DNA of 64,000 nt, taken from IMG/VR virus record IMGVR_UViG_3300045988_074170. One strand, written 5' to 3'. The DNA comes from a virus. Made by a program: the position numbers and the translations under genes. Numbering within the stretch: position 1 is the stretch's first letter; each line of letters starts with the position of its first letter. The notes beneath the pieces were generated by a model, which saw only the letters and a list, made by a program, of their open reading frames with translations, did not search any database and had not been told where the DNA came from. This document shows positions 16,901 through 62,167 of the stretch, one piece after another.

Positions 16901-19900
16901 TTATAACGTCAAAGTAACGATATTCGACTCGAAACAGGCTCTCAGCGTGTTCACCTCTTTACGGTTGTCGTAGGAAAGGATACCATTGATGAGTATCAGG
17001 TTCGCTCTTCCGCACGATAACAGGGGTTCCAACTGTTCGTATTCCTGCTGGAATATCACAATTTCGATGAACTCGTAGTTCTCCTCTAATATCAAACGAC
17101 ACATCGTATCCCCCTTGCGGGTCTTCTTAATCTCCATTTCAGCGATGAACCCAGCCAACACGACGTACCCGTTATTCGGCTTCACTTCCGTGTCGTGACA
17201 CTCCTCAAGAGTAGCATATTCGTAGGCATCAGGGAACTCCCCAGCGAACCTGTCATATATTTTCTGGTAATCAAAGAACGCCAGTCCGGATACTTTCTTT
17301 TGTAGGAGTGCCCACCACCACGCGTCATTGGCGTGGAAGTCGGCTCCAACTAATACAGGGTCATCTTCCTTGACATTTCCCTTCGTTGTTCCGAGGAAGT
17401 GTACAAACAGGTCTATTCGTTCCTGGGGTTTCTTTACCCCCTCAAGACTGTCGAACGCTCCTGCCAATATCAAGTTTCTGATGATACGACTGTTCACTGC
17501 TGAACCCTTCCATTTATGTCGGGTGATAAAGTCGTCTAATGACCAATATTGACCGTTCTCTGTGCGTTCCTTTATAATCTGGGTTGCAGCCTTTTCTGCG
17601 ACCTGTTTGACTCCTGTAATTGACCAATACAAGGCTTTCTCTTTGAAGTTGATAACAACATCGGTATCCGATATATTGATATCCACAGGACGTACCGTAC
17701 AGACTCCCGTTTTATTGATTTCCGCAATATAGCGTGAATAGTCAGACTCCATCGCATATTTAAACGCCACCGACCAATACTCAATAGGATAGTGAACCTT
17801 TATCCACTGAGAGATATAGCCTGTAATTGCATAGGCAGCAGCGTGGCTTCGGTTGAACAGGTACGTCGAAGCCTTATCAATAGCGTCCCACACCTTTTCG
17901 GAGTATTCCTGGGTGACGTTATAGTTGTCCCGATAGTAAGGAATAAACCGTTCTTTGTACTGCTGGAGAGCCTCGTATTTCTTCTTCACCATCGCTTTAC
18001 GAACGTCATCGGCTTCCACCAACGACAGCCCACCCAACTCACGACAGAGTTGCATGATTTGTTCCTGATAGGCAAATACTCCATACGTGTTATTCAGTAT
18101 CTTGTCCGTTCCGGTGAAATACTCAACCTCCTTCTGACCCTCTTTACGGGAGACGTACTCGTTATGGAAGTTGTTCTCCATTGCTCCTGGGCGATACAAT
18201 GAAATAGCAGCGATAAGGTCTTCAATATTGTCTGGCTTCATCTGACGACAATAACCTGTCAATCCGGAACTACCAAAGTGGAAGTTATCCTCGTTCCAAC
18301 CATTCTTGAAATACCTGTACACCTCTGGGTCATCCAACGGCACACTGAAGATGTCTAAATCCACACCCTCGTGCTCCTTCACCAGCCGAACCATGTCCTG
18401 GAACTTGTCGAACTGTTTCACACCCAGCACGTCCTCTTTTAGGAAGCCAGCAGCATCCATCTCACCACCTTCCCACTCGGTTACATACTCCTCGCCATTC
18501 TTACGAATAGGAACCCAATGAAACATATCGTGTTCCTCTGGGAATACCATCATCGCACAGGCATGAATTGACTGAGCCTTTGGTGCGGGCATTATCAGCA
18601 TCACTTCATTGATGAGGTCGGAATGTTCAACGACAAAGTTCTTCACTCGTGAATGAGCACAGGCTATCTTGAACAGGTCTTCAGGCTTCCTGTCCTTGAC
18701 GTCAAACACTTTCATCATTTCGTTCGTTTCCTGGAAGTCCAACCCGTACACACGAGCCATATCCTTGATGGCTGCTCGTAACTGTAATGCGCTGTAAGTT
18801 CCCACGGAACACACCTGTTTCCAGCCGTACCGTTCTTCCATGTATTTCTTCACACGGGGACGGTCTTCACCAGGATAGTCGCAGTCAATATCAGGGAGTG
18901 ATACCTTAACACGTCCTGCGTTCAAGAAACGCTCAAAGAGTAGGTCGTATCGCATTGGGTCTAACTTGGTAATCCCCAACAGGTAGGAGACAAGACAACC
19001 ACCAGCCGAACCACGACTGATACCCGTCATTATACCGTTACGATGGCACCAGTTGATAATGTCCCAAGTAATTAGGAAGTAGTCAATTGCTTCCCCTAAC
19101 TTTATAACACCCACCTCTCGGTCTATTCGTTCCATAATGACCTTTTCACCCCAATCCTCAATGAGGTCTGGGTGACGCTCAAGACCGTCGGCTATAAGAG
19201 ACCAAAAGAGGTCTTCATTTGTTTCGAACTGTTTTGCCTCTTCCTTTGTCATCTTATAGTGAGGCAAGTGTCTCTTCTTTACGTCGATGACAAAGGTTAT
19301 CGCCTCAGCAATGTTTTCGAGGAATTCCAACCCTTCCATGAAACGGCTGTACACGTCCATGAACCCTTCTTCGGTATCCGGAAACATTTGAGCCAACTCA
19401 ACAAACAGTTGGTCGTTCGATTTAAAGTATTGATTATCGCTCTCGTAGGCAGTTGTTCCACCAATACTATGTAGGCGAGGTCTGATACAACTGTACTCCT
19501 CGTCAAGATACCACGCATCAACCGACGGAACGGGTAACAGGTTCTTGTCCTTGAAGAATTTCTTCAGGTTCGTCAGATACCATTCGTCACGGTTATCATC
19601 TACATATTCGCATGGGTCTAACTGATAAACGGCAGCGTCTATATGCAAGTCTTTCAACTTGTCGTAATCCGTTGTCTTCGGGTCAAGAAACATAATCAAA
19701 TCATCGTTGTTAGTGGTGATTTTATTGAAATCCTCAAGACCGATGTACTTCGGATTGTCACAGTTGATGAACTTGTTTATAGTAAGGAGGTCTCGCCAAC
19801 CCTTGTCGTTCCTTGCGTACACCTTAACAGTGAAGCGGAAATCCCGAGGCTGGTCATATACCACACACTCCATACCAATCACGCTCTTGATGTCGTTCTT

Positions 19901-20401
19901 CTGGCATTCCGCTTGGAACTTCAACGCTCCGGCAAGTGAATTCTTTTCACAGATACCCAACGTCTTCACTCCAAGAAACTTTGCCTTCTTACACCAGTCG
20001 GCATACGTTCCCGTCCCGGACATCATTTCATATTGACCATGAACTCCCAAGAATACAGGGGTTTCAATTTCCTGTTTCGCCTGACCGATATATTTCAGCC
20101 GTGTGAGTTTCACGTCATTCTCTTTACCTTTGGCGAGCATATAATACACTCCTCCAAAACTGAATGCGTAGAAGTCACATGATGTTTCGACGGATTCCTC
20201 TCCCGAGCCTTTACGCTTCGGGTCGGCAGGAATACCAACAAAGTTGAACCCGTCATCAAACAGTGCACCGTCATACGCTGGCTGATACAATTCAAAGGTC
20301 TTCCCTCCTATCTCGACCACATAGTCAGAAATAGGAGCGAAGTCCATTAAATTCTTCTCAAGATATTCTTTGAATTTATCCATTGATTTTCTGCTTAACA
20401 A
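16901..20401 (-). CDS. dnaE: DNA polymerase III alpha subunit (DnaE-type C-family polymerase)
   Basis: 1166 aa. It has an N-terminal PHP-like region, PDIDCDYPGEDR (the PDID motif of the palm), RSHAAAYA, and a C-terminal OB-like region. Confidence 0.9.
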   Translation of the reverse strand: MLSRKSMDKFKEYLEKNLMDFAPISDYVVEIGGKTFELYQPAYDGALFDDGFNFVGIPADPKRKGSGEESVETSCDFYAFSFGGVYYMLAKGKENDVKLTRLKYIGQAKQEIETPVFLGVHGQYEMMSGTGTYADWCKKAKFLGVKTLGICEKNSLAGALKFQAECQKNDIKSVIGMECVVYDQPRDFRFTVKVYARNDKGWRDLLTINKFINCDNPKYIGLEDFNKITTNNDDLIMFLDPKTTDYDKLKDLHIDAAVYQLDPCEYVDDNRDEWYLTNLKKFFKDKNLLPVPSVDAWYLDEEYSCIRPRLHSIGGTTAYESDNQYFKSNDQLFVELAQMFPDTEEGFMDVYSRFMEGLEFLENIAEAITFVIDVKKRHLPHYKMTKEEAKQFETNEDLFWSLIADGLERHPDLIEDWGEKVIMERIDREVGVIKLGEAIDYFLITWDIINWCHRNGIMTGISRGSAGGCLVSYLLGITKLDPMRYDLLFERFLNAGRVKVSLPDIDCDYPGEDRPRVKKYMEERYGWKQVCSVGTYSALQLRAAIKDMARVYGLDFQETNEMMKVFDVKDRKPEDLFKIACAHSRVKNFVVEHSDLINEVMLIMPAPKAQSIHACAMMVFPEEHDMFHWVPIRKNGEEYVTEWEGGEMDAAGFLKEDVLGVKQFDKFQDMVRLVKEHEGVDLDIFSVPLDDPEVYRYFKNGWNEDNFHFGSSGLTGYCRQMKPDNIEDLIAAISLYRPGAMENNFHNEYVSRKEGQKEVEYFTGTDKILNNTYGVFAYQEQIMQLCRELGGLSLVEADDVRKAMVKKKYEALQQYKERFIPYYRDNYNVTQEYSEKVWDAIDKASTYLFNRSHAAAYAITGYISQWIKVHYPIEYWSVAFKYAMESDYSRYIAEINKTGVCTVRPVDINISDTDVVINFKEKALYWSITGVKQVAEKAATQIIKERTENGQYWSLDDFITRHKWKGSAVNSRIIRNLILAGAFDSLEGVKKPQERIDLFVHFLGTTKGNVKEDDPVLVGADFHANDAWWWALLQKKVSGLAFFDYQKIYDRFAGEFPDAYEYATLEECHDTEVKPNNGYVVLAGFIAEMEIKKTRKGDTMCRLILEENYEFIEIVIFQQEYEQLEPLLSCGRANLILINGILSYDNRKEVNTLRACFESNIVTLTL

Positions 20402-31349: not shown

Positions 31350-33449
31350 TTAAACTGCGTCAATTTTTATCATTACAGTGCTCTCTCGTAACTTGTTAAT
31401 CGCCATGAAAGAGGAAGACACGGTATCATCGTGCCCACTGATACTCTCAAGAGTTCCCTTATCGCTGCGGAACGCAACCGAGTTGAACTCCCCAAACATC
31501 TGGTCAATCTTAGCAGCCGTGTCAGGATGATACGGGCACTTGATTACACCTCTCTCAAATAACGCTGCAAGTGATGCCCACCCTGTTCTCAGGTCTTTCT
31601 TATTCCCGGAAGTCGTCGTGAACGGTGTAATATTCTTGATACCCATCTGAACGCACATATCCGCCAATATACTTTGGAAGCCGTTGTTTTCCACGACTAT
31701 CTCGTTTGGCTTGAACACCCTGTTCAGTAGGTCAATCTTCTGTATCTGTTCATTATGAGATAATCCCTTTTCCCGGAATATGTATAGGAGATAATAATTC
31801 CCCTGGACATCCTTCCCCCAAACTGTATAACAAGTATAGTCGGCTCCCACATTTCCTGAGACAGCGAAGTCACAACCCATGACCACCCTCTGTAACTTGA
31901 TAGGAAACGACTCTATGTTATCAACGAGCCTGACGTTTTCCATCCCGATTGTACTCCTCTTTAATATCTCCCAAGGGAAGATTGTACTGTCGTCGGAAAT
32001 AGGTACGACCAAATACTCACGAGAGAATACGAGCGTCCCCAGAGACGCTTTTTCCTCCATAAGTTTTGCCCACGTAAAACGGTCAGGAGCCAACAGGCGA
32101 CCGTCCGGGAATATGGCTGGGTACTCAAAGACACGGAACTTTGGGTCTTTCTTTAATTCGGCATACAAGTCCTCTTGCTGATACGGTGTACCATCAACGA
32201 TGTTATATCCATACGGCTCAACGATAGGCGTGATAGCACCTTTAAACAGGTCTCTCAACTTCTCACGCTGTTCCAATGAATAGATACTACTCTCATCTGG
32301 TAAGTCATCGCTGACCGCTGCCCCCACGTGAAGACCACGAATAAACCCGTCCTTTCCACGGAGGTGAAGTTTCGTTCCGTTCTCACATTCAATACTTGTC
32401 GCTGCCAGTGAAGCCTTTCCAGTAGGGTTCAGTTTTGCTGCCAAAGCCTCATTCACACGGATTTCCTCAACCACCTTGTCAATGTGCTGTTTACCCAGTT
32501 TTTCCGTGTTCGTAATAATACAGGTTTCCTGGCGATTTTTATTGTCAGGAATATCAGGTCGCATAAACGTCGGACGTCGGTAACTGTATAATCTCCACAG
32601 CGGGAACGCCATACAGAACTCGTAGGAATTGTGAACGACTGTACCATCCTCTAACTGAAACAGATGGTCACCATCGCACATAAACCCGTAATAAGACTCT
32701 TCCCCAATAGGTTCAACCGTTATATTCCCACGCTCGAATACAGGCTTATCGTAAGAGAACACCCTGTACCCCTGGAACCGTCTTTGCTTCTTGACAGGAT
32801 ATTTCAGGAATTGTCCCATTTCTATTTCGACATACTTCTTCCGCTTCGTGTCAAAGAGGCACATCGTGTGCGCTCGGTTCACGGCATACGGCATACCATT
32901 CTCCTGCTCAACCCTGAACATCTGGGCACGACCGATATGTCGTGTCAGAACCTTTCGGGGAGTGAAGTCTAATCCCATCACTTCCATTCCAGGATAGATG
33001 TCCTCTATATTCTTCACGGAAAAGTCAGCCATCAGCACCCGTGTACCTCTCGCAAAGCATTTACCGTGAGAACGAGCAGCAAGATATGCGCTGTTCGGAT
33101 AAAGTTGCACCATGTTTCCCCATTCAAGATTTCTCCAACCCTGACGGAAATTAGGAAGCATAGTTGTCTTGAAATAGTTGTACGACTGAACTTTCAGCGT
33201 CTCATCCATTGACTCTTCCAATTGGTCAATGTAGTTGAGCCGTTCAGTTTCAAGCGTGGTATTTAGGGAAAGAACATTATTCGTCTGAATGAAGATTTCC
33301 GATAACAGTGCATCGACGTCACCACCATAGCCACCAACCAATTGATTGATAGCCACAGGTGGTAACGACTCAAGCACGTTGAACGCAGTAGAGAACACCG
33401 TGTCCAACTGTTTGTACGACAACTTTAAATCTTCATTAAAATGTATCAT
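31350..33449 (-). CDS. terL: Terminase large subunit, interrupted by a mini-intein
   Basis: Spliced Walker A AARSHGK|S, Walker B-like GAAVSDDLPDE, and a C-terminal RNase-H-like nuclease (VMGCDFAVS...ADYTCYTVWG...VVENNG...GHDDTVSS). Confidence 0.75.
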   Translation of the reverse strand: MIHFNEDLKLSYKQLDTVFSTAFNVLESLPPVAINQLVGGYGGDVDALLSEIFIQTNNVLSLNTTLETERLNYIDQLEESMDETLKVQSYNYFKTTMLPNFRQGWRNLEWGNMVQLYPNSAYLAARSHGKCFARGTRVLMADFSVKNIEDIYPGMEVMGLDFTPRKVLTRHIGRAQMFRVEQENGMPYAVNRAHTMCLFDTKRKKYVEIEMGQFLKYPVKKQRRFQGYRVFSYDKPVFERGNITVEPIGEESYYGFMCDGDHLFQLEDGTVVHNSYEFCMAFPLWRLYSYRRPTFMRPDIPDNKNRQETCIITNTEKLGKQHIDKVVEEIRVNEALAAKLNPTGKASLAATSIECENGTKLHLRGKDGFIRGLHVGAAVSDDLPDESSIYSLEQREKLRDLFKGAITPIVEPYGYNIVDGTPYQQEDLYAELKKDPKFRVFEYPAIFPDGRLLAPDRFTWAKLMEEKASLGTLVFSREYLVVPISDDSTIFPWEILKRSTIGMENVRLVDNIESFPIKLQRVVMGCDFAVSGNVGADYTCYTVWGKDVQGNYYLLYIFREKGLSHNEQIQKIDLLNRVFKPNEIVVENNGFQSILADMCVQMGIKNITPFTTTSGNKKDLRTGWASLAALFERGVIKCPYHPDTAAKIDQMFGEFNSVAFRSDKGTLESISGHDDTVSSSFMAINKLRESTVMIKIDAV
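32628..33059 (-). mobile_element. Mini-intein (144 aa, no endonuclease domain) in the terminase Walker A loop
   Basis: HGK|CFARGTRVLMADFS...(144 aa)...LEDGTVVHN|SYEF. Cys1 is TGC at 33059-33057. The terminal HN is followed by Ser. The N-terminal block is Hint-like. Confidence 0.75.
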
Positions 33450-36948: not shown

Positions 36949-38334
36949 TTATGAATTTTCGTTTACTTTTACCATTACACCCTCGTATTCACCAGTTCCG
37001 GCTTGAGTCGGTACGGTAAACAGTTCGTATCCTCCATCAGCAGTCTTAGTTTCGAAGTCCCAGAAGTCTTCCTCGGTATCCTCAACGAATGTTGCTGTGT
37101 ACACCGTATCAGCCTGAGCAGCAATATCCTGAATGGCTGTCTGATTGTGAGCATTACCATTACGCAACCATCCAGCAAACTTGTAACCAGCAGCAGCCTG
37201 AGCGCATATCTGTACAGTCGTACCCATAGGCACGGATATTGACTCTTCTGCCTTGTCGATTGTTGCTGAATTGTTGATTGAAACGGCTCCTTGAGTTGTA
37301 CCACCGCTGGCTGTCTTGACGGTTATCTTGACATCCTGTACAGGGTCGGGGTCGACTTCCAACACGATGTTTAAGGTCTCGTTCTTTCCCGATACGGTAT
37401 AGTTGCCAGTTTGGGTTAGGTATCCTGGCTTTGATACCGACCAAATCAATGTACGACCGTTTATTGCCTCAACGCTGTTTGTGATAACACCATCGATGAT
37501 TACCTGTGCATCGGCTGGCGTTGGGTTGATTGTGATTGTATAAGTCTGACCCGAACCTCCTGAACCGCCCAGCGTCCAATACTGTGTACGCTCGTCAAGA
37601 ATTGTAACCGAACCACCATTATTACGGACACGAGCGATATAATACTCATTCGCATTCTTAGGAGGCATTGTACTTGCCGATGGCTCCTCTACAAAGGTTA
37701 ATTTATACGTGTCAAAGGTATATAATCCTTCCAACTGTTCATCGGTGAACCTACGACCCATAGGAACGCTTCCCAGAACGATTACCCGTAACTGGGTCTC
37801 AGCCTGAAACGCAACACCGCTTGAGAGAACGATGTTGTTATTATTGATGATATCAACGATTTGATACACCTGATTGTTCAATGGCTGTGAGCCGTCTTCC
37901 TTTACGAAACGAATACAGGTAGGAACGCCAGAACTCTGACCTCGTACGATTCCATTGAAATTGACAGTTCCTGACACGTTTCCTGACGTATCAACCTGAA
38001 CAGTTCCATTCTCGTAATTGTGTGAGTCGGGACCGACTTTCAGCCAATAATACTTCTGGTCGTTAGGAACAGGGAGGTCGAGTTGATTGTCGACCCTGTA
38101 CCCTTTCAGGTCAGAGCCAATCACATATCCTCCCACCATGTTAATCGCTCCCAGAGTTGTGGAAGCCGTCACTTTGAACGCTGAACCAGCCTTTCCTCCA
38201 GGAGATACCAACCCGAAGGAAAGGGAGGCAGCGAAGATTGCGGAAACTTCAGGCTTCTCGTTCAAGAAGCCTATCATCCGTGTGAGTTCTTCTTTCTCTA
38301 AGAACGTACCTCTGTGAATGTTTATCTTACTCAT
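36949..38334 (-). CDS. Tail fibre-like protein with C-terminal Listeria-Bacteroides repeat-like domain
   Basis: Beta-rich sequence. AQAAAGYKFAGWLRNG...TVYTATFVE matches the GY.F.GW repeat signature. It follows the baseplate genes. Confidence 0.45.
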   Translation of the reverse strand: MSKINIHRGTFLEKEELTRMIGFLNEKPEVSAIFAASLSFGLVSPGGKAGSAFKVTASTTLGAINMVGGYVIGSDLKGYRVDNQLDLPVPNDQKYYWLKVGPDSHNYENGTVQVDTSGNVSGTVNFNGIVRGQSSGVPTCIRFVKEDGSQPLNNQVYQIVDIINNNNIVLSSGVAFQAETQLRVIVLGSVPMGRRFTDEQLEGLYTFDTYKLTFVEEPSASTMPPKNANEYYIARVRNNGGSVTILDERTQYWTLGGSGGSGQTYTITINPTPADAQVIIDGVITNSVEAINGRTLIWSVSKPGYLTQTGNYTVSGKNETLNIVLEVDPDPVQDVKITVKTASGGTTQGAVSINNSATIDKAEESISVPMGTTVQICAQAAAGYKFAGWLRNGNAHNQTAIQDIAAQADTVYTATFVEDTEEDFWDFETKTADGGYELFTVPTQAGTGEYEGVMVKVNENS

Positions 38335-38350
38335 ATTTTCAAATATTTAT

Positions 38351-40690
38351 TTATCCCTGTTGGTCAATTTCAATTCTTATCGGAGTTTCACCCTCATCAC
38401 CTGACATCGGTGTAACCTTTGCCCAATTTTCAGGTAATGGGTCGAGTGCCCATTTCTTAGAGGCAGAAACAACGATTGTCTGAATACCACCTGTTGCTGG
38501 TATCTCAACCGCAGACGGAGTGAATGTCAATTCGCTGTTGCGCTCGAATATAGCCTGAATGTCGAGGTCATGGTCACCAACCCAATATTGAGTCGGGTTC
38601 CGAACGTCTTCCGTAGCATCTGTGATAATGTTCCATTTCTTAAACGTATATCCATCACTCGGAGTAGCAGTAAGCGTGATTTCCGTTCTCGGCAAACGGC
38701 TTCCCTCAACTGTGGCGGTTCCCCATCCTGGTTCAACGATTTCAATGTTTACGTCAAGAGGCAAGTTCATCGTGATGTCAAGCGTCTTGTCTTTATCCAT
38801 TGTTACTTCCCCAGTCTGGGTTATTCCCTTGGCGGTGATAGTATAACGGATAACCTCATTCATCGACACTTCGAAACGAACATACCCATTGGCGTCCGTC
38901 GATGAAATAAACCCGTTACTCAACTCTACTTGCGCACCCTGTACAGGTTGCCCGTCAAGTTCTCGTTTGACATTGAACGTCAAGAAGTAGGAAGTCCGTA
39001 CCACCCAATCCAACCACGTGTACGACACGACATTCTTGTACGATACAAGGTATCGTCTCACGAACTCTTCGATATCGTTCTTCGTTCTTGCTGACTTGAT
39101 TTGGGCATACATTGCTATCACGTTCTTCTGCCCCAGATACCCCTGTGAGAACGGGAGGTCAAGCGGTTTAAGAACTATTCCGGCAATAAGAATGTCCGCT
39201 GAAATTGAATCCCTGTCCTGAACGATATAAGGAGCCATATACTTCACATCACCAATGAAGCGAAGCGGTCTTCCGTTCTCAAAATTCAAATACAGGCTTT
39301 CGTCTTTCTGTTCAAGCACATTATAGATGATACCCCTCAATCGGTAGTATATTCCTGGAACCTTACAGGGACTCTGATAACGGGAACCCGTGAAGAAACT
39401 GTTTGTCTCCCGCCAATCGGTGATACGCACCTGATTGATAAGGTTGAAATTCGCATCGTAACAGTTTACCCCAAACTCAATATTCTGGTTCCCTAAACTC
39501 AATGCCTTCACCCATACAGTCACTTCGTAGTCCATTCCGGGATAAACCTCCATCGCCTTACTTTTATCGGCTTCGGTTGATATACCTACTCTTCCCCCAC
39601 CTGTCGGCTGGAAAACGTACATATTATCGATGAATTTTCGTTTCACCGCACCGAGTATAGGGTAATCCTTCAATGGTCCAACTCCGATAGTGTACGACTC
39701 CGAAAACTCAGCCGGAACGTCCTCTCCTGTATAGATTTGCCACGGATAAACCGTATAAATCTCATTCATCTCGGGAGCACCTGTACGCTTCATCTGAAGT
39801 TCATCTTGGTCAAACTGTATCAGGTCGCTGAATGTATCTCCGGCATAATCGGGTCCATAGTCCCAACCCTTTGACACGGCATTCACGGTTTCTGTGCCAT
39901 ACCAAGTAGGAGAACTCCACCCTAAACACCAACCCACGTTCTGTGGGGATAACACTCCGAAGATGAACTCATTCGGCTTTTCGTAGCCTACCAACCTCCT
40001 CAACTCACCCTCTATCGTTCCACCCGTTTCTACGACTTGATATGTTCCTCTCTTGTAGAATTCTTGAATCCAATTATTGAACAGGTAACGACGCTGGTCA
40101 AGTGTATCAATATTCTCATACACCAACCCCCATCCTTCGATGAATTCCTTCATGAGCAAATCGCTGTTCTCCAACTGACGATAGTTTCGTGCATAGATTA
40201 CAACAAATGCAAAATAGTGGGTCATCGTGAGGAAGAATGTATTATAGTCGTCTTGGTTGTTACGACTCACATACATTGGGACTATTCCAGGCTCAAATAG
40301 CTTCTCTAAGACATTTACCGCCCACGTCAGAACCTGTGGGTCGTTGCTGTCAAAGAACGTCTTAAAAATCGTCTTATCGTAAATGGTAGTTGATAGTGGG
40401 TCAGCGTATGGGTCAATAAAGGCTCGCGTCTTAACATACGGTTTCGTCACGTAGTCAAGAACCAAATCACAACTGTCAGTGAGCCGACCCAGTTCACTGA
40501 AAGTTTCTTTCGTCAAAGTTATCCACTCGGTGTACGTTTCACCCCCATCCCTTGAATAGCGGAACAGGCTCTGCTGGTCAGAACGTGCTGCCCTCAGAAC
40601 CGTTACCAATCCCGCAGGTGGAATCATTTGGGTGTGAACCGTAAACCCCTGTCCAACTCGAGGAAATTCTTTAAACTTTATTGTCGCCAT
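38351..40690 (-). CDS. Large tail fibre/baseplate-distal protein with Ig-like C-terminal domains
   Basis: 779 aa. The C-terminus has ATPSDGYTFKKWNI...IQAIFE (Listeria-Bacteroides repeat-like) followed by a BACON-like half, LTFTPSAVEIPATGGIQTIVVSASKKWAL...NWAKVTPMSGDEGETPIRIEI. Confidence 0.45.
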   Translation of the reverse strand: MATIKFKEFPRVGQGFTVHTQMIPPAGLVTVLRAARSDQQSLFRYSRDGGETYTEWITLTKETFSELGRLTDSCDLVLDYVTKPYVKTRAFIDPYADPLSTTIYDKTIFKTFFDSNDPQVLTWAVNVLEKLFEPGIVPMYVSRNNQDDYNTFFLTMTHYFAFVVIYARNYRQLENSDLLMKEFIEGWGLVYENIDTLDQRRYLFNNWIQEFYKRGTYQVVETGGTIEGELRRLVGYEKPNEFIFGVLSPQNVGWCLGWSSPTWYGTETVNAVSKGWDYGPDYAGDTFSDLIQFDQDELQMKRTGAPEMNEIYTVYPWQIYTGEDVPAEFSESYTIGVGPLKDYPILGAVKRKFIDNMYVFQPTGGGRVGISTEADKSKAMEVYPGMDYEVTVWVKALSLGNQNIEFGVNCYDANFNLINQVRITDWRETNSFFTGSRYQSPCKVPGIYYRLRGIIYNVLEQKDESLYLNFENGRPLRFIGDVKYMAPYIVQDRDSISADILIAGIVLKPLDLPFSQGYLGQKNVIAMYAQIKSARTKNDIEEFVRRYLVSYKNVVSYTWLDWVVRTSYFLTFNVKRELDGQPVQGAQVELSNGFISSTDANGYVRFEVSMNEVIRYTITAKGITQTGEVTMDKDKTLDITMNLPLDVNIEIVEPGWGTATVEGSRLPRTEITLTATPSDGYTFKKWNIITDATEDVRNPTQYWVGDHDLDIQAIFERNSELTFTPSAVEIPATGGIQTIVVSASKKWALDPLPENWAKVTPMSGDEGETPIRIEIDQQG

Positions 40691-51413: not shown

Positions 51414-53072
51414 TTAATTTTTAAGTAAGAATCCAGTGAAGAAAATCTTAGTGATTTCGCTGTTCACCACCACCTCATAGGTGACATCGTAGTAGTCCTC
51501 AATTCGGGTTGCAACTACATTCTGGAAACGCTGTATCAAGTTGTCTTGATTAGCGGTTGCCACACGTGATTGCAAGAAATTGATTGTCCAAGTCTCAAGA
51601 GCACCTTTTGACAAGGTATTCAAGTTTACACCGTTTTCATCACCCAACAAGTCAATTTCTGCATTCACCACACACTCTTTGTTCAACTGTGCGATAACAC
51701 GCATGAACTGGATGCTGAATGAGAGACCTTTTTTGTTGAATAATGTTTTGTTATCTTGCAAAGTTGTAACACCCTGTAAGACAACGAAACGACCGAGATA
51801 CGGATTCGGATAAACCACAACCAAACCAGCCTTAACAGCCTTTTCCATTTCCTTCTCGTCAGGAATGTGTTGAAGTTTATCGCCACCGATTGTCTTGTTG
51901 GTAACGGGGATATAGGGAGGCTTTCCGCTGACACGTCCAATAACCTGACACAGATTGTAGAATACACCCCACCAACGTACCTTTGAAGCAACAAAATCGC
52001 TCGCAGTACCGATACCACCATGAACACAAACCACGTATGCATTGTTGAACTGTTTCGCCATATCCAGTGAGTCGTTGAACTTCACTTTCGAGTCGTATGC
52101 CCCAACGTACACGAATTTATCGAATTTCGCCTGAGTATTGCGGTGTGCGATAACCTTGTTATTCGTAGCACCAGCACCCGACGCACCGATTTGGTCAGTG
52201 AATACGATGTTATATTCAACATCGGTGATTTGAGCCAACAGGTCATCGAGGTCAGTCGGTTTGTACTGTTCCGTACCACCTGTCGCAACCTGATATCCTG
52301 CGTTATCCGTGATATCTGACGCATCAACCGTTCCGTCACCTGTAATCTTGCTTGAATCATCAAGAATGAATCTTGACCCAAAGTTCTCATCGGTTTGGCA
52401 CCACTGAATAACCTGAGCCAAATTAGTACATTCCGGAGTCTGACAAATCAGATACGGGTCAGCCTGTTCAACCGTCAATTCATCATAGGAAAGTTCAACC
52501 CCTGTAATCGGGTCTTTGTAAAGACCTGTAAAGGTTCCTCTCCAGAATTTCAGAATGAACGCATTTGTGTCTTCCGTTCCGGCTTCAATTGTCCACGCAT
52601 AACCTGTTTTCAGGAAATCGCCCTCAACCCCACCATTTGCATTCAATCCTTCGTCGATAGTTTTCACTACCAGCGTACCACCTTTCGACCCACCACCCGT
52701 AGGAGCGAAAGTCATCGTTGCCGGAGTTGTCGTACATGCACGGGCATACAGTAACTTGCTGATACCAACCGCATCCGCATTATACGGGTCGGGGGTAAAC
52801 AGAGCCTCTGCACATTTCCAGAACATTCCGCCTTTCACGAAATCCCGGAAATCCGATAATGTTTCGAACTCGTAGACAGCGTCCTTGCCTTGCTTGTCAG
52901 TTCCGTTCACACCAGAACCACCACCGAAGCCAGCACCATAAACACCTGTGTCAATCAAGAGCACGGTTCCATAGTCCAAATTTCGGGAAGCACTACTCTC
53001 GCCCGACGTGATTGTAGAATACACACCAGGAAGAGTTCTCAATTTTCCATTAAAATAGACACTCGTTGCCAT
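51414..53072 (-). CDS. Contractile tail sheath protein
   Basis: N-terminal LRTLPGVYSTI matches the sheath PGVY signature. 552 aa, and followed by the tube gene. Confidence 0.7.
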   Translation of the reverse strand: MATSVYFNGKLRTLPGVYSTITSGESSASRNLDYGTVLLIDTGVYGAGFGGGSGVNGTDKQGKDAVYEFETLSDFRDFVKGGMFWKCAEALFTPDPYNADAVGISKLLYARACTTTPATMTFAPTGGGSKGGTLVVKTIDEGLNANGGVEGDFLKTGYAWTIEAGTEDTNAFILKFWRGTFTGLYKDPITGVELSYDELTVEQADPYLICQTPECTNLAQVIQWCQTDENFGSRFILDDSSKITGDGTVDASDITDNAGYQVATGGTEQYKPTDLDDLLAQITDVEYNIVFTDQIGASGAGATNNKVIAHRNTQAKFDKFVYVGAYDSKVKFNDSLDMAKQFNNAYVVCVHGGIGTASDFVASKVRWWGVFYNLCQVIGRVSGKPPYIPVTNKTIGGDKLQHIPDEKEMEKAVKAGLVVVYPNPYLGRFVVLQGVTTLQDNKTLFNKKGLSFSIQFMRVIAQLNKECVVNAEIDLLGDENGVNLNTLSKGALETWTINFLQSRVATANQDNLIQRFQNVVATRIEDYYDVTYEVVVNSEITKIFFTGFLLKN

Positions 53073-53163: not shown

Positions 53164-53187
53164 GGGCAGGAGCCGAAACTCCTGCTC
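53164..53187 (-). terminator. Hairpin after the Ig/BACON-like gene (no clear T tract)
   Basis: GAGCAGGAG-TTTCGG-CTCCTGCCC on the minus strand. Confidence 0.3.
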
Positions 53188-53194
53188 AAACTCA

Positions 53195-54262
53195 TTAAGA
53201 AATCTTCCAAGTAATGTTGGTCGTAATCTTGAATGTCTGAGAACCACCCGTTGCCCCATAGGACAAACTGGTAGGAGTGACGTCAAGATACAGAATCTTC
53301 GCTACCAATGTTCTCGCACCTGTTACTGTGAACGTGTACGAAAGACTCGTGCTGACACGGGTACTGCCCTCGTACCATCCGTCAAATACATCTTGACTGT
53401 TGGCCTTAGTACATTTCACCGTTGCTGAAGCACCATAAGCATAAGAGCCACCGCCAGATACAGAACCACGTCCCGCAGCAGAACTGTCAAGACTGACTGA
53501 AATTGTATATGACTTGGTAGTTCTCGTACCACGAGCCTCAAAGGTTCTGTTTGCTGTTATATTTTCCACGCTCAATGACAACGACGAAGAAATCTTCGTG
53601 TCGCCCTCATACCATCCTAAGAATGAATAAGAGTATTGAGCCGTATTCGCGAGCAGTGTTGCAACCGCAGTTGCGGTATTTCCCCAATTAATCTTCTCAG
53701 AAGTCTTATTAATCGTATTGATATAATCTCCTTTCGAATAGGTAACAGTCCAAGTCGAAGTCGCTTGAGTAACCGTTACCGTCCCCACGACAGAAGCAAT
53801 TGAACCCGTAACAGTTATCTTCCCTGTACGCTGCCCAACTGTGTTCTTAGGAATGGAGATTTGGACACTGAATATAAACTCATCAACGGCTCCTGGGTCA
53901 TCAGGAATTGATGTCCCATTCACCGTCAATAAGCCATTCGCAGTATAATTAGCAGGCAAAACAATAGGGATATCATTCCCCGAACCAAGAGCGAAAGTAA
54001 TCTTCGGTGAGTTACTCTTTCCAGAAACAGTTATCGTCGAAGCTCCTTCGCCTACCTCAAATGAAGTCTTGTCCAAAGTAATGTATTCAGCAGTTGGCTC
54101 TTGCTTAACTTGGTAAGATTTTGCCGCTTCAATTCCTTTGACCACAGCCGTAACAACTGTCTGACGTTCAAGGCGACCTTTATGTATCGTGCCTGAATTG
54201 GTCAGAGTAGCGTCACCCTCTCCGGTCATTGGATTAACGGTCAACCAAGAATCTTTCGCCAT
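53195..54262 (-). CDS. Ig-like multidomain protein: N-terminal BACON second half, two Listeria-Bacteroides repeat-like domains, C-terminal BACON first half
   Basis: N-terminus AKDSWLTVNPMTGEGDATLTNSGTIHKGRLERQTVVTAVV, internal YSFLGWYEG and DVFDGWYEG, C-terminus LDVTPTSLSYGATGGSQTFKITTNITWKIS-stop. Confidence 0.55.
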   Translation of the reverse strand: MAKDSWLTVNPMTGEGDATLTNSGTIHKGRLERQTVVTAVVKGIEAAKSYQVKQEPTAEYITLDKTSFEVGEGASTITVSGKSNSPKITFALGSGNDIPIVLPANYTANGLLTVNGTSIPDDPGAVDEFIFSVQISIPKNTVGQRTGKITVTGSIASVVGTVTVTQATSTWTVTYSKGDYINTINKTSEKINWGNTATAVATLLANTAQYSYSFLGWYEGDTKISSSLSLSVENITANRTFEARGTRTTKSYTISVSLDSSAAGRGSVSGGGSYAYGASATVKCTKANSQDVFDGWYEGSTRVSTSLSYTFTVTGARTLVAKILYLDVTPTSLSYGATGGSQTFKITTNITWKIS

Positions 54263-54287
54263 ACCTTAAATTCTTTTTAAATAGTTA

Positions 54288-54824
54288 CTAACTAACAGTC
54301 CAAGGCACATTCGTGCTGACTTGGAATGTCTTACTTCCACCAGCAGCGTCGTAATCCAACGAGGTCGGTGTAACATCAAGATAATTAATCTTAGCAACCA
54401 GACTCACTGCTTCCTGAGCCGTAAATGTATGGGTCGCATTCGAACTCACCTTAGATGAACCACTGTACCATCCGTCAAATACGTCACCACTCTTCAACAA
54501 GTTACATTTCACAGTAACTTGGTCTCCAACGTTCACTTCCGCTGTTGCTGTCGCTCCCGCAGTACCATTATTGATTTGAACCGTTCCTCGGCTTGTGACA
54601 TCGGAATTAACTGAAAGAGTAACTTGGAACACACCCTTCGCAATGTCTTTCAACATCACATAGTCATTATTTCCGTAGGAAGCCAAAGAATCAGCGTCAA
54701 ATTTATTGGTCGCGATAAGTTCCTTCTTGCGGACGTAATCGTTAGCAGCCACGCCAATATCGCCAGGAGTTATCCCAACGCTGTCGGCAGCCTGTTTCGA
54801 TGTCGCATACGGATTATTTGCCAT
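54288..54824 (-). CDS. Ig-like protein with Listeria-Bacteroides repeat-like domain and C-terminal BACON first half
   Basis: DVFDGWYSGSSKV...LDVTPTSLDYDAAGGSKTFQVSTNVPWTVS-stop. The ATG at 54824 is used; the track TTG at 54857 overlaps the upstream gene. Confidence 0.5.
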   Translation of the reverse strand: MANNPYATSKQAADSVGITPGDIGVAANDYVRKKELIATNKFDADSLASYGNNDYVMLKDIAKGVFQVTLSVNSDVTSRGTVQINNGTAGATATAEVNVGDQVTVKCNLLKSGDVFDGWYSGSSKVSSNATHTFTAQEAVSLVAKINYLDVTPTSLDYDAAGGSKTFQVSTNVPWTVS

Positions 54825-54826
54825 GA

Positions 54827-55051
54827 TTAAGAAGTTTTTCCAGCACCTGACTGGCAATCTACATATTTCTTGAAAACGATATTTCCTGATACGGAATTAA
54901 TCTTGTCGATAATTCCTTGCCCAGTGAGTTTATCAAGAATGTTCTTTTCCGTCAGACCGTTCAAAATGCTTGACGGATTGTCTTGCTGAGTCTGAACCGC
55001 TGTCAGCAGTTCGTCGACCTTTGCTCCTGTAAATTTCGATTTGTACGCCAT
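54827..55051 (-). CDS. Hypothetical small protein
   Basis: 74 aa ORF. Confidence 0.4.
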   Translation of the reverse strand: MAYKSKFTGAKVDELLTAVQTQQDNPSSILNGLTEKNILDKLTGQGIIDKINSVSGNIVFKKYVDCQSGAGKTS

Positions 55052-55070
55052 ATCTTTCTTATTTTAATGG

Positions 55071-55331
55071 TTATTCTTTCAATACACCAAAGTCCTCCCC
55101 AGTACTATCCTGGAACGGCTCGTCACTATCAAAAGGAATGAACGGTTCCCGAAGACCCAGTTGAGTAATCGTAAAGGAAGATGTCAAGGGGATAGTCCCT
55201 TCGGTGATTTTACCTGTTACAGTCATTCTCCTGTCGAACCCCTCATTCGTTTCAACTGAAAGAGGGACAGCAGCCGTCATGACTGACGGCTGTGCCTCTA
55301 CTTTGCTTTTCTTTAACCGTTTCTTTCCCAT
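55071..55331 (-). CDS. Hypothetical small protein
   Basis: The ATG at 55331 is used; the track start at 55361 is TTG. Contains PLSVETNEGFDRRMTVTGK, which resembles a BACON C-terminal strand. Confidence 0.35.
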   Translation of the reverse strand: MGKKRLKKSKVEAQPSVMTAAVPLSVETNEGFDRRMTVTGKITEGTIPLTSSFTITQLGLREPFIPFDSDEPFQDSTGEDFGVLKE

Positions 55332-55345
55332 TATTTCTAAACGTG

Positions 55346-55999
55346 TTAGGACAATTCCCAAGAAGTATTAGAAACGATAGTCTGAGATACGGCAGCACCA
55401 CTGGCTTCAAGAGTGATTGTCTCCTGACCGAATGAGAATACAGGGTCGCCAGCAGATTGCTTGATTTGAATCTGAGCCGACTGACCTCCAGCGGTCGTTA
55501 CTTTCATTGCTGCAGTCAATTCGTCAATTGTCGTATTTGCTGCAATTCCAGTGAAAGTGATACTGAACTCAAACTCCTGCTGTGCTCCAGGGTCGCCAGT
55601 GATAGCCACATTATTGGTGGTTTCTACTCCACCAGCGGTGTACTTCGAAGGAAGAGTCAATTTCAAACCTCCCTCAACGACCACACGAGTCTCAAGGTCA
55701 ACCAATTCGAAGTTCAACTTCGAAGAGTTGGTTTTACCTGTAATCGTCAGAGTTCCACCTGCTTTTCCAACAGTTGTTTCTGCTCCATTCGTAAATGAAA
55801 CGAACTCAGGTTTTCCTTTCTGGATAACCTTGTAAGTTTTATTCGGCGAAACTCCAACCGCCACACCTGTTACAGTCGTCTCACGTTGTTCACGACCTGT
55901 GTGAACTGTACCAATGTTCTGAACTGTACCAATGTTCTGAACTGTCGCATTACCGTTTCCCGAAGCGGGATTGACGGTCAACCATGCTGCTTTTGCCAT
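55346..55999 (-). CDS. Ig-like protein, paralogue of 53195..54262 (N-terminal BACON second half, C-terminal BACON first half)
   Basis: N-terminus AKAAWLTVNPASGNGNATVQNIGT..HTGREQRETTVTGVAVG, C-terminus ITLEASGAAVSQTIVSNTSWELS-stop. The first 150 aa or so are collinear with 53195..54262. Confidence 0.55.
   Translation of the reverse strand: MAKAAWLTVNPASGNGNATVQNIGTVQNIGTVHTGREQRETTVTGVAVGVSPNKTYKVIQKGKPEFVSFTNGAETTVGKAGGTLTITGKTNSSKLNFELVDLETRVVVEGGLKLTLPSKYTAGGVETTNNVAITGDPGAQQEFEFSITFTGIAANTTIDELTAAMKVTTAGGQSAQIQIKQSAGDPVFSFGQETITLEASGAAVSQTIVSNTSWELS
55903..55945. repeat. Perfect 18-bp tandem duplication (2.4 copies)
   Basis: gaactgtaccaatgttct at 55903-55920 and 55921-55938, plus a partial gaactgt. 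In frame, it encodes VQNIGT VQNIGT. Confidence 0.9.
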
Positions 56000-56071: not shown

Positions 56072-56953
56072 CTACTCAAGCCTCCAAGCGGTCTTCGCTT
56101 CAATATCCTGTTCACCTTTGTTGTTCATCTCATCAAGCCATACATATCCCGAACCAAACTTGAACAGTTCGTCACCAACTGATAACACCCAATCAGTATT
56201 CGAATAGATAGTGTTCTCACCTGTTGCTAACAGTGAATCCAGCCATACATACGGATTGGAGAATTCGAAATATTTGTCCAAAGGAGGCGGAACCCATCCT
56301 GGGTCTGACCCAACAGGTATCGCATCCTCAATGATAAATCTCCTCACAATTTCAGGTCGAATGATAGAAGCATAATCACCAATGTCCTCAACCTCTATTG
56401 ATACGTTCTTTACCAATATCGGCTGCGGGAACAGAGCGTTTTCTGCTATCAATTCATTCGTGCTGAAATCGAAGTAAGCAAACTCCTCTTCAAATGTATT
56501 TCTGGCTCCAATGAGCAACGCATATATAACCTCCCCCATCAGAATTGATTCAAGCATATTCTCACTGAAGCACATCAAATCAATCTTCGACAAGGCTGGT
56601 TGGCGGAACCCCTCACGTTCATATTCCGTTCCACCAAACGTGTCTAATACGGGTGCGCCATAACCTCCAAGCGGTGCTGGCTTATCCGTAGAACGTCCTG
56701 GCTCCCTTACGATAATACATGGAAGATGACTTTTATCCTTCGGATACTCCATCTTTACCTGTATCTTTCTGGGACTCGTATTAGTTCTCAGGAACAGTTT
56801 CTTTGCTTGCTCATAGAAGTCAAAAGAGCCGTCCCTCGTCCCATAGAACATATGGTAGAGGAAAGTCTCATGCTCCGGAACACTTTCGTAATCATACTGA
56901 ATGTACTGGAGTAACCCATCGACTATCTGTTTTATTCTCGCAATTAAAATCAT
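56072..56953 (-). CDS. Putative neck/head-tail joining protein
   Basis: Position between the capsid and tail modules only. Confidence 0.35.
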   Translation of the reverse strand: MILIARIKQIVDGLLQYIQYDYESVPEHETFLYHMFYGTRDGSFDFYEQAKKLFLRTNTSPRKIQVKMEYPKDKSHLPCIIVREPGRSTDKPAPLGGYGAPVLDTFGGTEYEREGFRQPALSKIDLMCFSENMLESILMGEVIYALLIGARNTFEEEFAYFDFSTNELIAENALFPQPILVKNVSIEVEDIGDYASIIRPEIVRRFIIEDAIPVGSDPGWVPPPLDKYFEFSNPYVWLDSLLATGENTIYSNTDWVLSVGDELFKFGSGYVWLDEMNNKGEQDIEAKTAWRLE

Positions 56954-60649: not shown

Positions 60650-62167
60650 TTAGGTAGTCGGCAGACCAATCTTACCGATGTTGATAATACGAGCAATCTT
60701 TCCAGGCATATACTCAACCGGAGTACCATAGTTCAGGACAGAGAACGAACGTCTCGGACCAACAATAGCGTAATCCAGTTTCATTGTACCACCCAGTTCC
60801 AAATACTCAATCATTTCACTTCCGTTGAAGTAAACGAGAGCAGACTTGGTTCCGGCAATCCAACGGTTGCGGTCGTGAACCGCTCCCGGAGCAGCACCGT
60901 CCCATCCAGCAGCAAGTTCAGTCTTGCTAACTTCGAAGATAGGATAGAAATCAGCGATGCCTTTGTCGACCGGATTTGCTTCGGTACGATAGATGACATA
61001 ACAGGTTTCAGGATAAGCCGAAGAGTTTGCACCAGCAAACTTCAGAGTCACAGACTGAGTTGCGCCAACAGCCTGTTCAGCGTCGTTCAGCAAAACGGGT
61101 TCAGACTCTCCGTAACGGTTCTTCGCTGTAACAGCATAGAAGTAGTTACCAGCGTGAACAGAACCGAACATTCCCTTTGCGTCAACGGCAACAGCGACAG
61201 GAGTCGTAACATCCTTAATAGGAGCGTTCGGAGCCTTGTCAGAAGTCTTACCACGACCCAACTTAATCGGCTGGTTGAAGTCGAAGTATTTGTCCGCTTT
61301 GATGTTCACCTTACCAAACTGAGTGGTGATGTCGTTTACCGACTGACCCATAGTTGCGCCCACAACGCCACCAGCCATACCAACGATAACACGTTTAGAC
61401 TCGTGGAAGAGTTTCACGTAGTTGTTGAATACGACAGGGGAAGAAACGATACGGTCGATGATACCGTTTCGGTCGTTTACAACTGCCTGAGCAGCGTCCT
61501 CAACCAAAGCGTCATTCAGAACAGAACCGTTTGCGTTCAATACGGCAGGGTCTCCGAAGTAAGCGTCAAGCACCTGTTCAGAAGTTTTACCCAGCAAGCC
61601 ACCTGTGATATCGTTGATACCAGCGATGTGCTGTGCAAATACACCGTCGAACTCTTCAGGAACTTTTGCCGAGTCAGCGTCAATCACTTTCTTGTCAAGG
61701 ATAGTCTGAAGCAAGATGGTCTTGTTTTCAACTTCCTTGGTGTACAGTGAACCAACGACAGTCTTGACAATCATACCCGGATGAGTAACCTGTCCAGTCA
61801 CACCTGTGAACTTGACAACGATTGACTTCCGACGATATACAGAGTCGGTCTCAGTAGGAGTTTCGCCTTCCTGATTGAAGATGCCCACTTCCTGACCATA
61901 CTTGTACAACTGATTGTACTGATGAACAGTATTGTCAATCTTCTGACGGTTCAACTCATTCCAGAACACCAACTGGTCCAAACGGTTTTCAAGGTTCTTC
62001 AGCACAGAATCCAAGGATTCAGGTTTCAGACCTCCACCGTTATTCAATTGGTCGTTGTACTGCATACCAGTCAACAGACCTGCTTCCATCGCCTTCAAGA
62101 TTTCATCCGAAGACATACTTTCCAACGGATTGGCGTTTTCCGTTCCAGTGTAATTGAATAAATCCAT
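60650..62167 (-). CDS. Major capsid protein (presumed HK97 fold)
   Basis: 505 aa ORF in protease-scaffold-capsid order, followed by a strong terminator hairpin. Confidence 0.6.
   Translation of the reverse strand: MDLFNYTGTENANPLESMSSDEILKAMEAGLLTGMQYNDQLNNGGGLKPESLDSVLKNLENRLDQLVFWNELNRQKIDNTVHQYNQLYKYGQEVGIFNQEGETPTETDSVYRRKSIVVKFTGVTGQVTHPGMIVKTVVGSLYTKEVENKTILLQTILDKKVIDADSAKVPEEFDGVFAQHIAGINDITGGLLGKTSEQVLDAYFGDPAVLNANGSVLNDALVEDAAQAVVNDRNGIIDRIVSSPVVFNNYVKLFHESKRVIVGMAGGVVGATMGQSVNDITTQFGKVNIKADKYFDFNQPIKLGRGKTSDKAPNAPIKDVTTPVAVAVDAKGMFGSVHAGNYFYAVTAKNRYGESEPVLLNDAEQAVGATQSVTLKFAGANSSAYPETCYVIYRTEANPVDKGIADFYPIFEVSKTELAAGWDGAAPGAVHDRNRWIAGTKSALVYFNGSEMIEYLELGGTMKLDYAIVGPRRSFSVLNYGTPVEYMPGKIARIINIGKIGLPTT

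Follow-up and report, generated by a model that had tools for sequence, protein, structure and literature searches.

A small domain of the sugar-binding type (BACON) that is divided between neighbouring genes was found in the 64,000-nucleotide stretch of viral DNA of the IMG/VR record IMGVR_UViG_3300045988_074170 (hereafter the window). At positions 53195-55999, three proteins, named here A, B and C, ended in the first half of the domain, and two of them, C and A, began with its second half. Profile searches recognised the joined halves as one full domain. Across deeply divergent lineages both the split and the order of the genes were kept, and fused versions also occurred. The genomic pattern is well supported, and a mechanism is proposed for it: complementation of the half-domains between chains (in trans) would link consecutive gene products into an ordered chain, a virion fibre or adhesin. 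On the sequence evidence, this reading appears rather probable. Coordinates are those of the window unless a locus is named, and every gene of the region, like all the other features located below, lies on the minus strand.

Half-domains at the termini of proteins A, B and C

The first ~30 residues of BACON (strands A-C) were termed the “tail” and the last ~50 residues (strands C'-G) the “head”. Profile hidden Markov models (HMMs) named half1 (tail), half2 (head) and mid were built from the C family. The tail consensus, ...L.V.P..L.F...GG..TF.V.SN..W.VS, ran to the stop codon in C (217 amino acids), B (178 amino acids) and A (355 amino acids), and the head consensus, M-A-K-..-W-L-T-V-.-P-.-S-G-.-G-N...HTGR..R....V, opened C and A directly after Met-Ala-Lys. 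In a scan of the 64-kb window with the family HMMs, C, B and A were the only proteins with a solid tail, and a solid head was detected in C and A alone. The original prediction, made from the sequence of the window, had stated that three proteins end in the first half of the domain and two begin with the second half, and the termini were read in the same way here.

Protein C (55346-55999) starts with MAKAAWLTVNPASGNGNATV and ends with ITLEASGAAVSQTIVSNTSWELS-stop. Its head (residues 1-62; 55814-55999), corresponding to strands C'-G, scored 57 bits with the half2 HMM, and residues 3-50 matched positions 40-83 of the PF19190 profile. The middle domain (residues 63-184; 55448-55813) is a complete BACON-like β-sandwich with an insertion, which scored 149 bits with the mid HMM and was predicted by AlphaFold2 (AF2) to contain nine strands, with a predicted local distance difference test score (pLDDT) of 95-98. 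The tail (residues 185-217; 55349-55447) carries the first half of the domain to the stop codon and scored 51 bits with the half1 HMM. The gap with which the head of C had originally been written proved to be an exact 18-nucleotide tandem duplication (55902-55937; repeat search, family D6), which encodes VQNIGT twice and sits in the loop/strand-E region of the half-domain. The 120 closest database homologues of C were all 211 amino acids long and lacked the VQNIGT duplication.

Protein A (53195-54262) starts with MAKDSWLTVNPMTGEGDATL and ends with YLDVTPTSLSYGATGGSQTFKITTNITWKIS-stop. It consists of a head (residues 1-55; 54098-54262), a BACON-like middle domain (residues 56-169), two Flg_new repeats (residues 170-248 and 252-324) and a tail (residues 325-355; 53198-53290), with scores of 56 bits for half2, 105 bits for mid and 26 bits for half1. 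Residues 258-322 passed the InlB B-repeat threshold (PF18998, 25.7 bits against a cut-off of 23.6), and many InlB-B/Flg_new repeats were found in A orthologues. Protein B (54288-54824; ATG at 54824, stop at 54288) ends with YLDVTPTSLDYDAAGGSKTFQVSTNVPWTVS-stop and contains an N-terminal region of ~65 amino acids, one InlB-B/Flg_new repeat (residues 66-147) and a tail (residues 148-178; 54291-54383) that scored 31 bits with half1. The matches of its residues 81-145 were below threshold (PF09479, 23.2 bits with a cut-off of 27; PF18998, 18 bits with a cut-off of 23.6). The three proteins had been called paralogues, which is a loose term: A and C share the head and the middle domain, whereas B has only the tail module in common with A.

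The joined halves match a single BACON domain

Artificially joined tails and heads gave full-length matches to the BACON_2 profile PF19190 (profile length 94, gathering score 25 bits), with 42-47 bits for the top pairs and E values of about 1e-11 to 1e-12, well above the level of chance. The tail of B joined to the head of A covered profile positions 2-91 of 94 (43.5 bits, E 3e-11), and the tail of A scored 47.1 bits with the head of C and 41.9 bits with the head of A. The tail and head of C together scored 29 bits over positions 9-88. By themselves, the halves gave partial matches or none: the B tail alone did not match PF19190, and the A head alone scored 16.8 bits, confined to positions 41-91. 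Joining a tail of P293, the protein encoded upstream of C, to the head of C produced a match over positions 27-88 with 29 bits, compared with positions 40-88 and 22 bits for the C head alone. No single protein reached 25 bits at its termini (13 bits for the C head), and the region of A paralogous to the middle domain of C matched PF13004 with 19.4 bits. Because only a joined tail and head passes the gathering score, the proteins were taken to hold BACON halves and a sub-threshold BACON-like middle domain. The profile alignment bore out the earlier view that the terminal segments are halves of one domain.

The C-family profile was also aligned with the solved BACON domain of BoGH5A (3ZMR_A). 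Residues 15-39 of 3ZMR_A corresponded to profile positions 178-202 and residues 42-92 to positions 4-55, in permuted order and with two residues between the halves. Because the two 3ZMR_A segments align to opposite ends of the profile, the halves, in permuted order, correspond to neighbouring segments of a single solved domain. The division lies between strands C and C', and each side contributes 3-4 strands. The PDB search with the C-family profile returned BACON-containing glycoside hydrolases only.

These alignments also suit the main rival explanation for C and A, namely closure within one chain (in cis). In this circular permutation, the head and tail of the same protein would fold into one BACON domain, and the middle domain, together with the Flg_new repeats in A, would form an antiparallel excursion. 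The permuted 3ZMR alignment is exactly what permutation by duplication would give, and both the C-tail+C-head and the A-tail+A-head combinations scored as full BACON_2 domains (29 and 42 bits).

Stop codons and spacers between the genes

Programmed frameshifts often append immunoglobulin-like (Ig-like) domains to phage structural proteins. If translational recoding (frameshift, read-through, hopping or reassigned stops) fused the neighbouring products, the domain would not be truly split, and the very tight spacing at some junctions, with 0-2 nucleotides between genes, would fit such a process. However, gene B ends with AGT TAG TAA, which is followed by a 25-nucleotide spacer, A lies in a different frame, and a TAA stands in the A frame two codons upstream of its ATG. 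Among the relatives, the B-A spacer varied between 12 and 25 nucleotides (25, 14, 21, 17, 21, 12), and the frame relation was not conserved. Read-through and frameshifting were excluded as a route for rejoining the halves because of these variable spacers without a conserved frame. The earlier claim that neither read-through nor a single frameshift could fuse B and A was thus supported by the stop codons and by the relatives. The spacers between P293 and C measured 48-95 nucleotides with stops in all frames, and the conserved Met-Ala-Lys start was kept by every downstream gene. Recoding is therefore a highly improbable explanation of the pattern.

Conservation of the split and the X-C-Y cassette

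The termini were the same in every orthologue of C, B and A from the 20-odd IMG/VR loci compared, whose sheath identity was 75-100%. B was 177-178 amino acids long and carried its tail in all relatives. The A orthologues ranged from 355 to 1390 amino acids according to the number of InlB-B/Flg_new repeats, and the head and tail were kept in the forms of 1042-1390 amino acids. The A protein of the window, with 355 residues, has ~700-1000 amino acids of repeats fewer than the 1042-1390-residue forms of loci L002, L009, L014, L017, L018 and L020. Because this short form recurs in the database (P0271, 84 members; P0272, 29 members), it was considered either a variant present in the population or the result of repeats that collapse recurrently during assembly.

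An HMMER scan of 1.84 billion cluster representatives gave 407 C-family matches at E<=1e-3, including 205 at E<=1e-10. Most of the representatives were ~200 amino acids long and aligned with C from end to end (residues 1-217 against 1-~202). The gene neighbourhood was then compared in 80 IMG/VR loci (47-95% identical to C), together with GenBank phages, ENA/Logan contigs and GTDB genomes. The upstream gene, X, ends 18-95 nucleotides before C with the motif YL.V.P..IWL...N.....V.V.SN..W..-stop, and its product is usually 70-150 and sometimes 260-400 amino acids long. The downstream gene, Y, begins 0-19 nucleotides after C with M...I.W..G.G.I.IT....G...V.SD.N.G..R...V.F.T and encodes either ~80-100 amino acids or 230-730 amino acids with fibre-like C-terminal domains. 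A tail-ending X upstream and a head-starting Y downstream flanked 85 of the 94 C-type genes in all loci. The same X-C-Y pattern appeared in loci outside the model building, among them the crassviruses cr111_1 (gp003/004/005) and cr127_1 (gp35/36). In the profile-profile comparison with hhalign, the X-tails showed homology to half1 over its full length (95.9% probability, E 5.5e-9) and none to the head (0.2%), and the Y-heads showed homology to half2 (94.4%, E 8.4e-8) and none to the tail (7%). In siphovirus-like contigs, the cassette closed the tail module and was followed directly by the lysis genes.

In the window, the X role is taken by P293 (56072-56953), a neck-module protein whose function is assigned from synteny only. 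Its residues 1-188 share 42% identity with a 232-residue protein that precedes the sheath gene in MT835500 and has no tail motif. P293 also showed a weak match to PF23932 (phage termination protein, E 0.075), and a PDB sequence search with P293 gave no match. Two variants of the BACON first half lie near its C-terminus. The first, r1 (YFEFSNPYVWLDSLLATGENTIYSNTDWVLS; residues 228-258; 56180-56272), was matched weakly and partially by the half1 HMM (9.7 bits, E 0.036) and was colinear by eye with the tails of C, B and A. The second, r2 (LFKFGSGYVWLDEMNNKGEQDIEAKTAWRLE-stop; residues 263-293; 56075-56167), forms the C-terminus and aligned with the C-terminal X tails of other lineages. P293 thus appears to be an X-tail fused to a neck protein.

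The Y role is taken by ORF86 (55071-55331), whose ATG is 14 nucleotides past the C stop. It contains a Lys-rich N-terminus, a divergent BACON second half (residues ~20-59) and a short GLREPF...FGVLK tail. The sequence ...AAVPLSVETNEGFDRRMTVTGKITEG...FTITQLG resembles head strands F and G, and ORF86 has E-F-G-like strands and no C' strand. Its head gave no match by Pfam or the half2 HMM; the assignment rests on the profile-profile comparison and on natural fusions (P0265, P0206 and P0244), in which ORF86 is colinear with the segment that follows the C-type tail. The three tails and two heads originally listed were all recovered, but the set proved larger, with two tail-like motifs in P293 and a divergent head in ORF86.

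The tails of B and A gave further information on how the halves evolve. Their last ~35-60 residues were nearly identical within a genome and differed between lineages (L017:5140-9870, L018:806-4512 and other relatives), which indicates concerted evolution of the two tails at the sequence level. This likeness could mean a shared partner or gene conversion. In the window itself, the B and A tails shared only short DNA stretches of 71-75% identity. Phage fibre modules are mosaic, and it could be argued that the halves never pair at all, serving instead as recombination “linkers” for module swapping and changes of repeat number, or as β-hairpins that dock on another virion protein. The range of A lengths among close relatives (355-1390 amino acids) would fit this explanation, as would the greater similarity of the B and A tails of one genome (31 of 35 residues in L018) compared with that of orthologues from different lineages, which is compatible with gene conversion or recombination. 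However, the halves are conserved at the protein level down to 30-45% identity without DNA similarity, and the split is always in the same loop, with the complementary half invariably encoded next door, neither of which recombination linkers require. An isolated half of a β-sandwich would also expose its hydrophobic core. We consider it quite improbable that the halves never pair.

Natural fusions and their neighbours

Several database proteins were natural fusions of cassette members. P0125 and P0164 are C+C fusions, in which the internal junction is a complete BACON_2 domain (profile positions 2-92 of 94) and the outer head and tail are open. P0265, P0206 and P0244 are C+Y fusions, and P0137 is an X+C fusion in which an unrelated N-terminal body is joined through an intact junction to a C unit. 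P0244 is preceded, 1 nucleotide away, by a gene for a 115-residue X that ends with YPTIIWLSEENDYRATIEVKSNTNWTVE-stop, and P0137 is followed by a gene for an 89-residue Y that starts with MEKVIPWDIGGGNIHLSYYGTGNG. Because P0244 uses its own tail in cis and P0137 its own head, the product of the adjacent gene is the only available partner for the half that is left open. These neighbours are the strongest argument, read from sequence, for pairing between chains. B and P293 likewise would need a partner chain for a complete domain, because they have tails and no head.

The fusions are also informative about closure within one chain. The two-unit proteins P0125 and P0164 resemble the intermediates expected of a circular permutation, and the X-C-Y order would then be the product of tandem duplication or insertion, with the orphans P293, B and ORF86 pairing mutually or not at all. 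Yet closure is impossible where C is fused to X or Y, and in those lineages the open half faces a complementary orphan next door. B and P293 are headless, and the A orthologues of 1042-1390 amino acids would have to loop ~20 domains back to bring their ends together. On balance, closure within one chain, which could still apply to C and A, seems unlikely.

Predicted structures

The AF2 monomer model of C, based on an alignment of 97 sequences, had a mean pLDDT of 93.8 and a predicted template modelling score (pTM) of 0.84. In this model, the head contained strands at residues 7-10, 27-30, 39-45 and 54-60, and the tail contained only two strands of 3 residues each. To model the junction with Y, C and ORF86 were joined in a chimera colinear with the C+Y fusions through ...N[ED]G[FI]DR...T[IV]TQ.GLR..F...GVLK (24-sequence alignment, shallow over ORF86; pLDDT 83.3, pTM 0.68). 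In the chimera, the C tail gained four strands (residues 188-190, 194-197, 206-210 and 214-217), and ORF86 formed strands at residues 250-258 and 266-273 with pLDDT values of 63-87. The chimera suggests a linear arrangement of head, middle domain and a predicted unit of tail plus ORF86. In the models, the two short tail strands of C alone appear too few for a complete sandwich, in contrast to the four seen with ORF86 appended, which would argue against closure within one chain.

A Foldseek search with the C model gave 28 matches at E<=1e-3, which were generic tandem Ig-like structures only, including a self-complemented FimA variant, and cannot show which segments pair. With the chimera, Foldseek gave 269 matches at E<=1e-3, and the top match was the donor-strand-complemented CfaB trimer fusion 3f85. 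The leading matches were CfaB pilin fusions and cadherin arrays of three to four domains, with 280-360 columns aligned.

Genome context and other features of the window

The source phage, which is contractile-tailed and has a genome of ~107 kb, is abundant in metagenomes of the human gut; many contigs of 105-110 kb encoded a near-identical protein C. The order of transcription is major capsid protein (SU10-type, 60650-62167), four neck-module genes (the last being P293), C, ORF86, ORF74, B, A, tail sheath (51414-53072, phrog_279) and tube. None of P293, C, ORF86, B and A belonged to a PHROGs family. The block from C to A was absent from MT835500 (sheath identity 53%) and from Chryseobacterium phage MA9V-3 (34%), where the P293 homologues (232 and 236 amino acids, respectively) lack the C-terminal extension and are separated from the sheath gene by one small gene. 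Since these distant relatives lack the whole block, the genes from C to A were regarded as an accessory module that has been inserted after the neck genes and ahead of the sheath gene. Directly after the A stop, a GC-rich hairpin (GAGCAGGAGTTTCGGCTCCTGC; 53166-53187) was read from the sequence; it has no T-run, was missed by a consensus terminator scan and is separated from the sheath gene by a 122-nucleotide AT-rich spacer. This hairpin may be an operon boundary.

ORF74 (54827-55051) encodes a small protein with the N-terminal motif YKSKFTGAKVDELL and is a conserved fourth member of the cassette. It showed 47.8% identity over 23 amino acids to the N-terminus of a 987-residue fibre-like protein located after Y in L117 and resembled the 65- and 136-residue post-Y proteins of L116 and L059. 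The motif M..Y.SK[FYH]TG..[IV][ED]ELL opens the post-Y gene in several lineages, in proteins ranging from 65 amino acids to the 987-residue fibre (L116:1012-1209, L117:3268-6231, L059:6877-7287). The idea that ORF74 and B are the parts of a split long fibre was not supported, since only the first ~25 residues of ORF74 match the post-Y N-termini and the N-terminus of B matches nothing.

Public databases name homologues of C “cellulase”, “glycosyl hydrolase family 5 protein” and “lipocalin-like protein” (P0034; OR575929.1; NC_055880.1 gp004). The C homologues have no catalytic domain, and BACON-containing enzymes are the probable source of these names. Two contigs assigned outside Bacteroidota also carried C-type genes next to a Y gene, L136 (Vibrio olivae NZ_JBHMEP010000023.1) and L139 (an “uncultured Mycoplasma sp.” bin); the remaining genome matches were all Bacteroidales (Prevotellaceae, Rikenellaceae, Muribaculaceae). 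The placement of L136 and L139 could reflect contamination, mis-binning or a wider host range.

Four other genes of the window are of note. A baseplate-side fibre-like protein of 779 amino acids (38351-40690) contains CarboxypepD_reg-like and Flg_new_2 domains, and its C-terminal BACON-like domain breaks off within the second half (...LTFTPSAVEIPATGGIQTIVVSASKKWALDPLPENWAKVTPMSGDEGETPIRIEIDQQG-stop), with strands F-G missing; the next gene does not supply these strands. The 461-residue protein encoded at 36949-38334 combines a Flg_new_2 repeat with the domain PF25641 (“Head fiber dimeric protein-like”, E 1.3e-15). PF25641 was defined on a crassvirus head fibre and is found here in a myovirus-type genome. 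In the terminase large subunit (31350-33449, 699 amino acids, Terminase_6C), residues 131-201 form a Hom_end-associated Hint domain, probably an intein. A full-length DNA polymerase III alpha subunit of 1166 amino acids with PHP, NTPase, finger and HHH_6 domains is encoded at 16901-20401.

Discussion

Two explanations had been offered in the original prediction: a circularly permuted chain closed on itself, or head-to-tail strand complementation between subunits, like donor-strand exchange, building a chain or ring. Complementation between subunits was better supported here, by the conserved X-C-Y cassette and by the fusions with their orphan neighbours, but not in the form of a donor strand or a homo-oligomeric ring. 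In the proposed mechanism, fibre or adhesin modules would be joined non-covalently by rebuilding one BACON domain, an Ig-like β-sandwich, from two polypeptides. The product of gene n, the proximal subunit, would supply strands A-C and that of gene n+1 strands C'-G, so that the chain would be heterotypic and the gene order would mirror the chain order. P293 with its two tail motifs would anchor C, ORF86 would cap C, and B would anchor the InlB-repeat fibre A; these partner assignments follow the gene order. The tail of A would stay open; it might remain unpaired or take up a further subunit with a head (A or C). The fibres formed by P293 -> C -> ORF86 and B -> A would contain many BACON-like and InlB-B repeats and could be attached to the neck or exposed elsewhere on the surface. 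Display on the virion, as in Hoc-type Ig-like adhesins (“bacteriophage adherence to mucus”), is suggested only by the position of the genes, between the neck genes and the sheath gene here and ahead of the lysis genes in other lineages, and the fibres may bind glycans or mucin. A split within a domain, in contrast to one between two domains, would make the joint obligate, tight and sequence-specific.

Several observations weigh against this assembly between chains. The head and the tail almost always co-occur in one protein, as closure in cis directly predicts; by our own HMMs, a head at residue 1 and a tail at the stop were present in 115 of the 150 best representatives, whatever their length. 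The AF2 monomer of C was predicted with high confidence (mean pLDDT and pTM as given above), and its termini, with pLDDT values of 91-97, are no less consistent with closure of the chain on itself. The N-terminal head of the chimera was predicted unchanged and with confidence (pLDDT 71-97) though its presumed partner was engaged elsewhere. Mirror-tree partial correlations of the X-tail, C-head, C-tail and Y-head distance matrices, with the middle domain controlled, were 0.48, 0.45 and 0.32; they do not favour X-tail/C-head over C-tail/C-head and do not separate closure in cis from pairing in trans. The tails and heads in the window stand at 5:3 (tails in P293 twice, C, B and A; heads in C, A and ORF86). 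ORF86 lacks the first head strand with its Trp and escaped both Pfam and the half2 HMM. A natural B+A fusion was not found by a chimeric-query search, in which the best coverage was 72%.

Complementation of BACON half-domains may extend beyond this phage. The chances appear evenly balanced that it is a general assembly code by which gut Bacteroidota phages, including the crassviruses, build their fibres and adhesins. In such a code, each module would carry a “sticky” head and/or tail, and the X-type, canonical and Y-type variants of the halves would set the order of assembly; modules could be fused, split, duplicated or swapped in evolution without redesigned interfaces. If true, the code would tell which hypothetical proteins connect in the fibres of abundant, mostly uncultured gut phages. 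It would also explain why such proteins escape domain annotation or are mislabelled with the enzyme and lipocalin names mentioned above, because each terminus carries only half a domain. For engineering, the halves could provide natural, orthogonal-looking connectors for swapping receptor-binding or adhesin modules.

BACON domains have been described in tail-region proteins of crAss-like and other gut phages, intact within one chain (PMC6949934). BACON/Ig-like “modular adhesins” of crAss-like phages and an unassigned myovirus-like group, also with intact domains, are reported to mediate adherence to epithelial layers (PMC13370021). The proteins of both studies resemble those described here in the BACON family, the tail or fibre gene setting and the ecology, but their domains are undivided. 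Neither text mentions domains divided between genes, and a sequence search in the supplements of PMC13370021 gave no match. The literature searched contained no account of a BACON or other Ig-like domain that is shared out over adjacent phage genes, and none of strand complementation in phage fibres. Crassvirus tail fibres were too flexible to be resolved by cryo-EM, and the structural atlas of crAss001 left the fibre assemblies unresolved (PMC10172136).

Circularly permuted domains that arise by duplication and truncation resemble the present case in that the C-family profile is permuted relative to the BoGH5A BACON domain (3ZMR) and two-unit proteins contain an intact central domain. A true permutant, however, closes within one chain, whereas the fused lineages and the headless B and P293 argue that at least some of the junctions here close between chains. 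In the type V pili of Bacteroidota (FimA/Mfa1 class), β-sandwich subunits polymerise by strand exchange; the subunits are lipoprotein precursors that are proteolytically activated at the cell surface, and a C-terminal strand is exchanged. These pili belong to the same phylum as the hosts of the phages, but the proteins described here start with MAK..W and have no signal peptide, lipobox or protease site.

The closest parallel is found in the chaperone-usher pili (CfaB of CFA/I, FimA), in which an incomplete Ig-like fold is completed by the next subunit and a non-covalent head-to-tail fibre results. The cassette proteins are nevertheless not donor-strand pilins, and the resemblance is one of principle only. 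In the pili, a single missing G strand is provided by the N-terminal extension of the next subunit, whereas here each partner would give about half of the sandwich (strands A-C against C'-G). The pili need a chaperone and an usher, and no such genes are present in this cassette; assembly is proposed to take place in the cytoplasm, the chain would be heterotypic and follow the gene order, and the domain is BACON rather than a member of the pilin family. If the proposed pairing is true, the principle of donor-strand complementation would apply not only to bacterial pili but also to phage particles, and the exchanged piece could be half a domain instead of a single strand.

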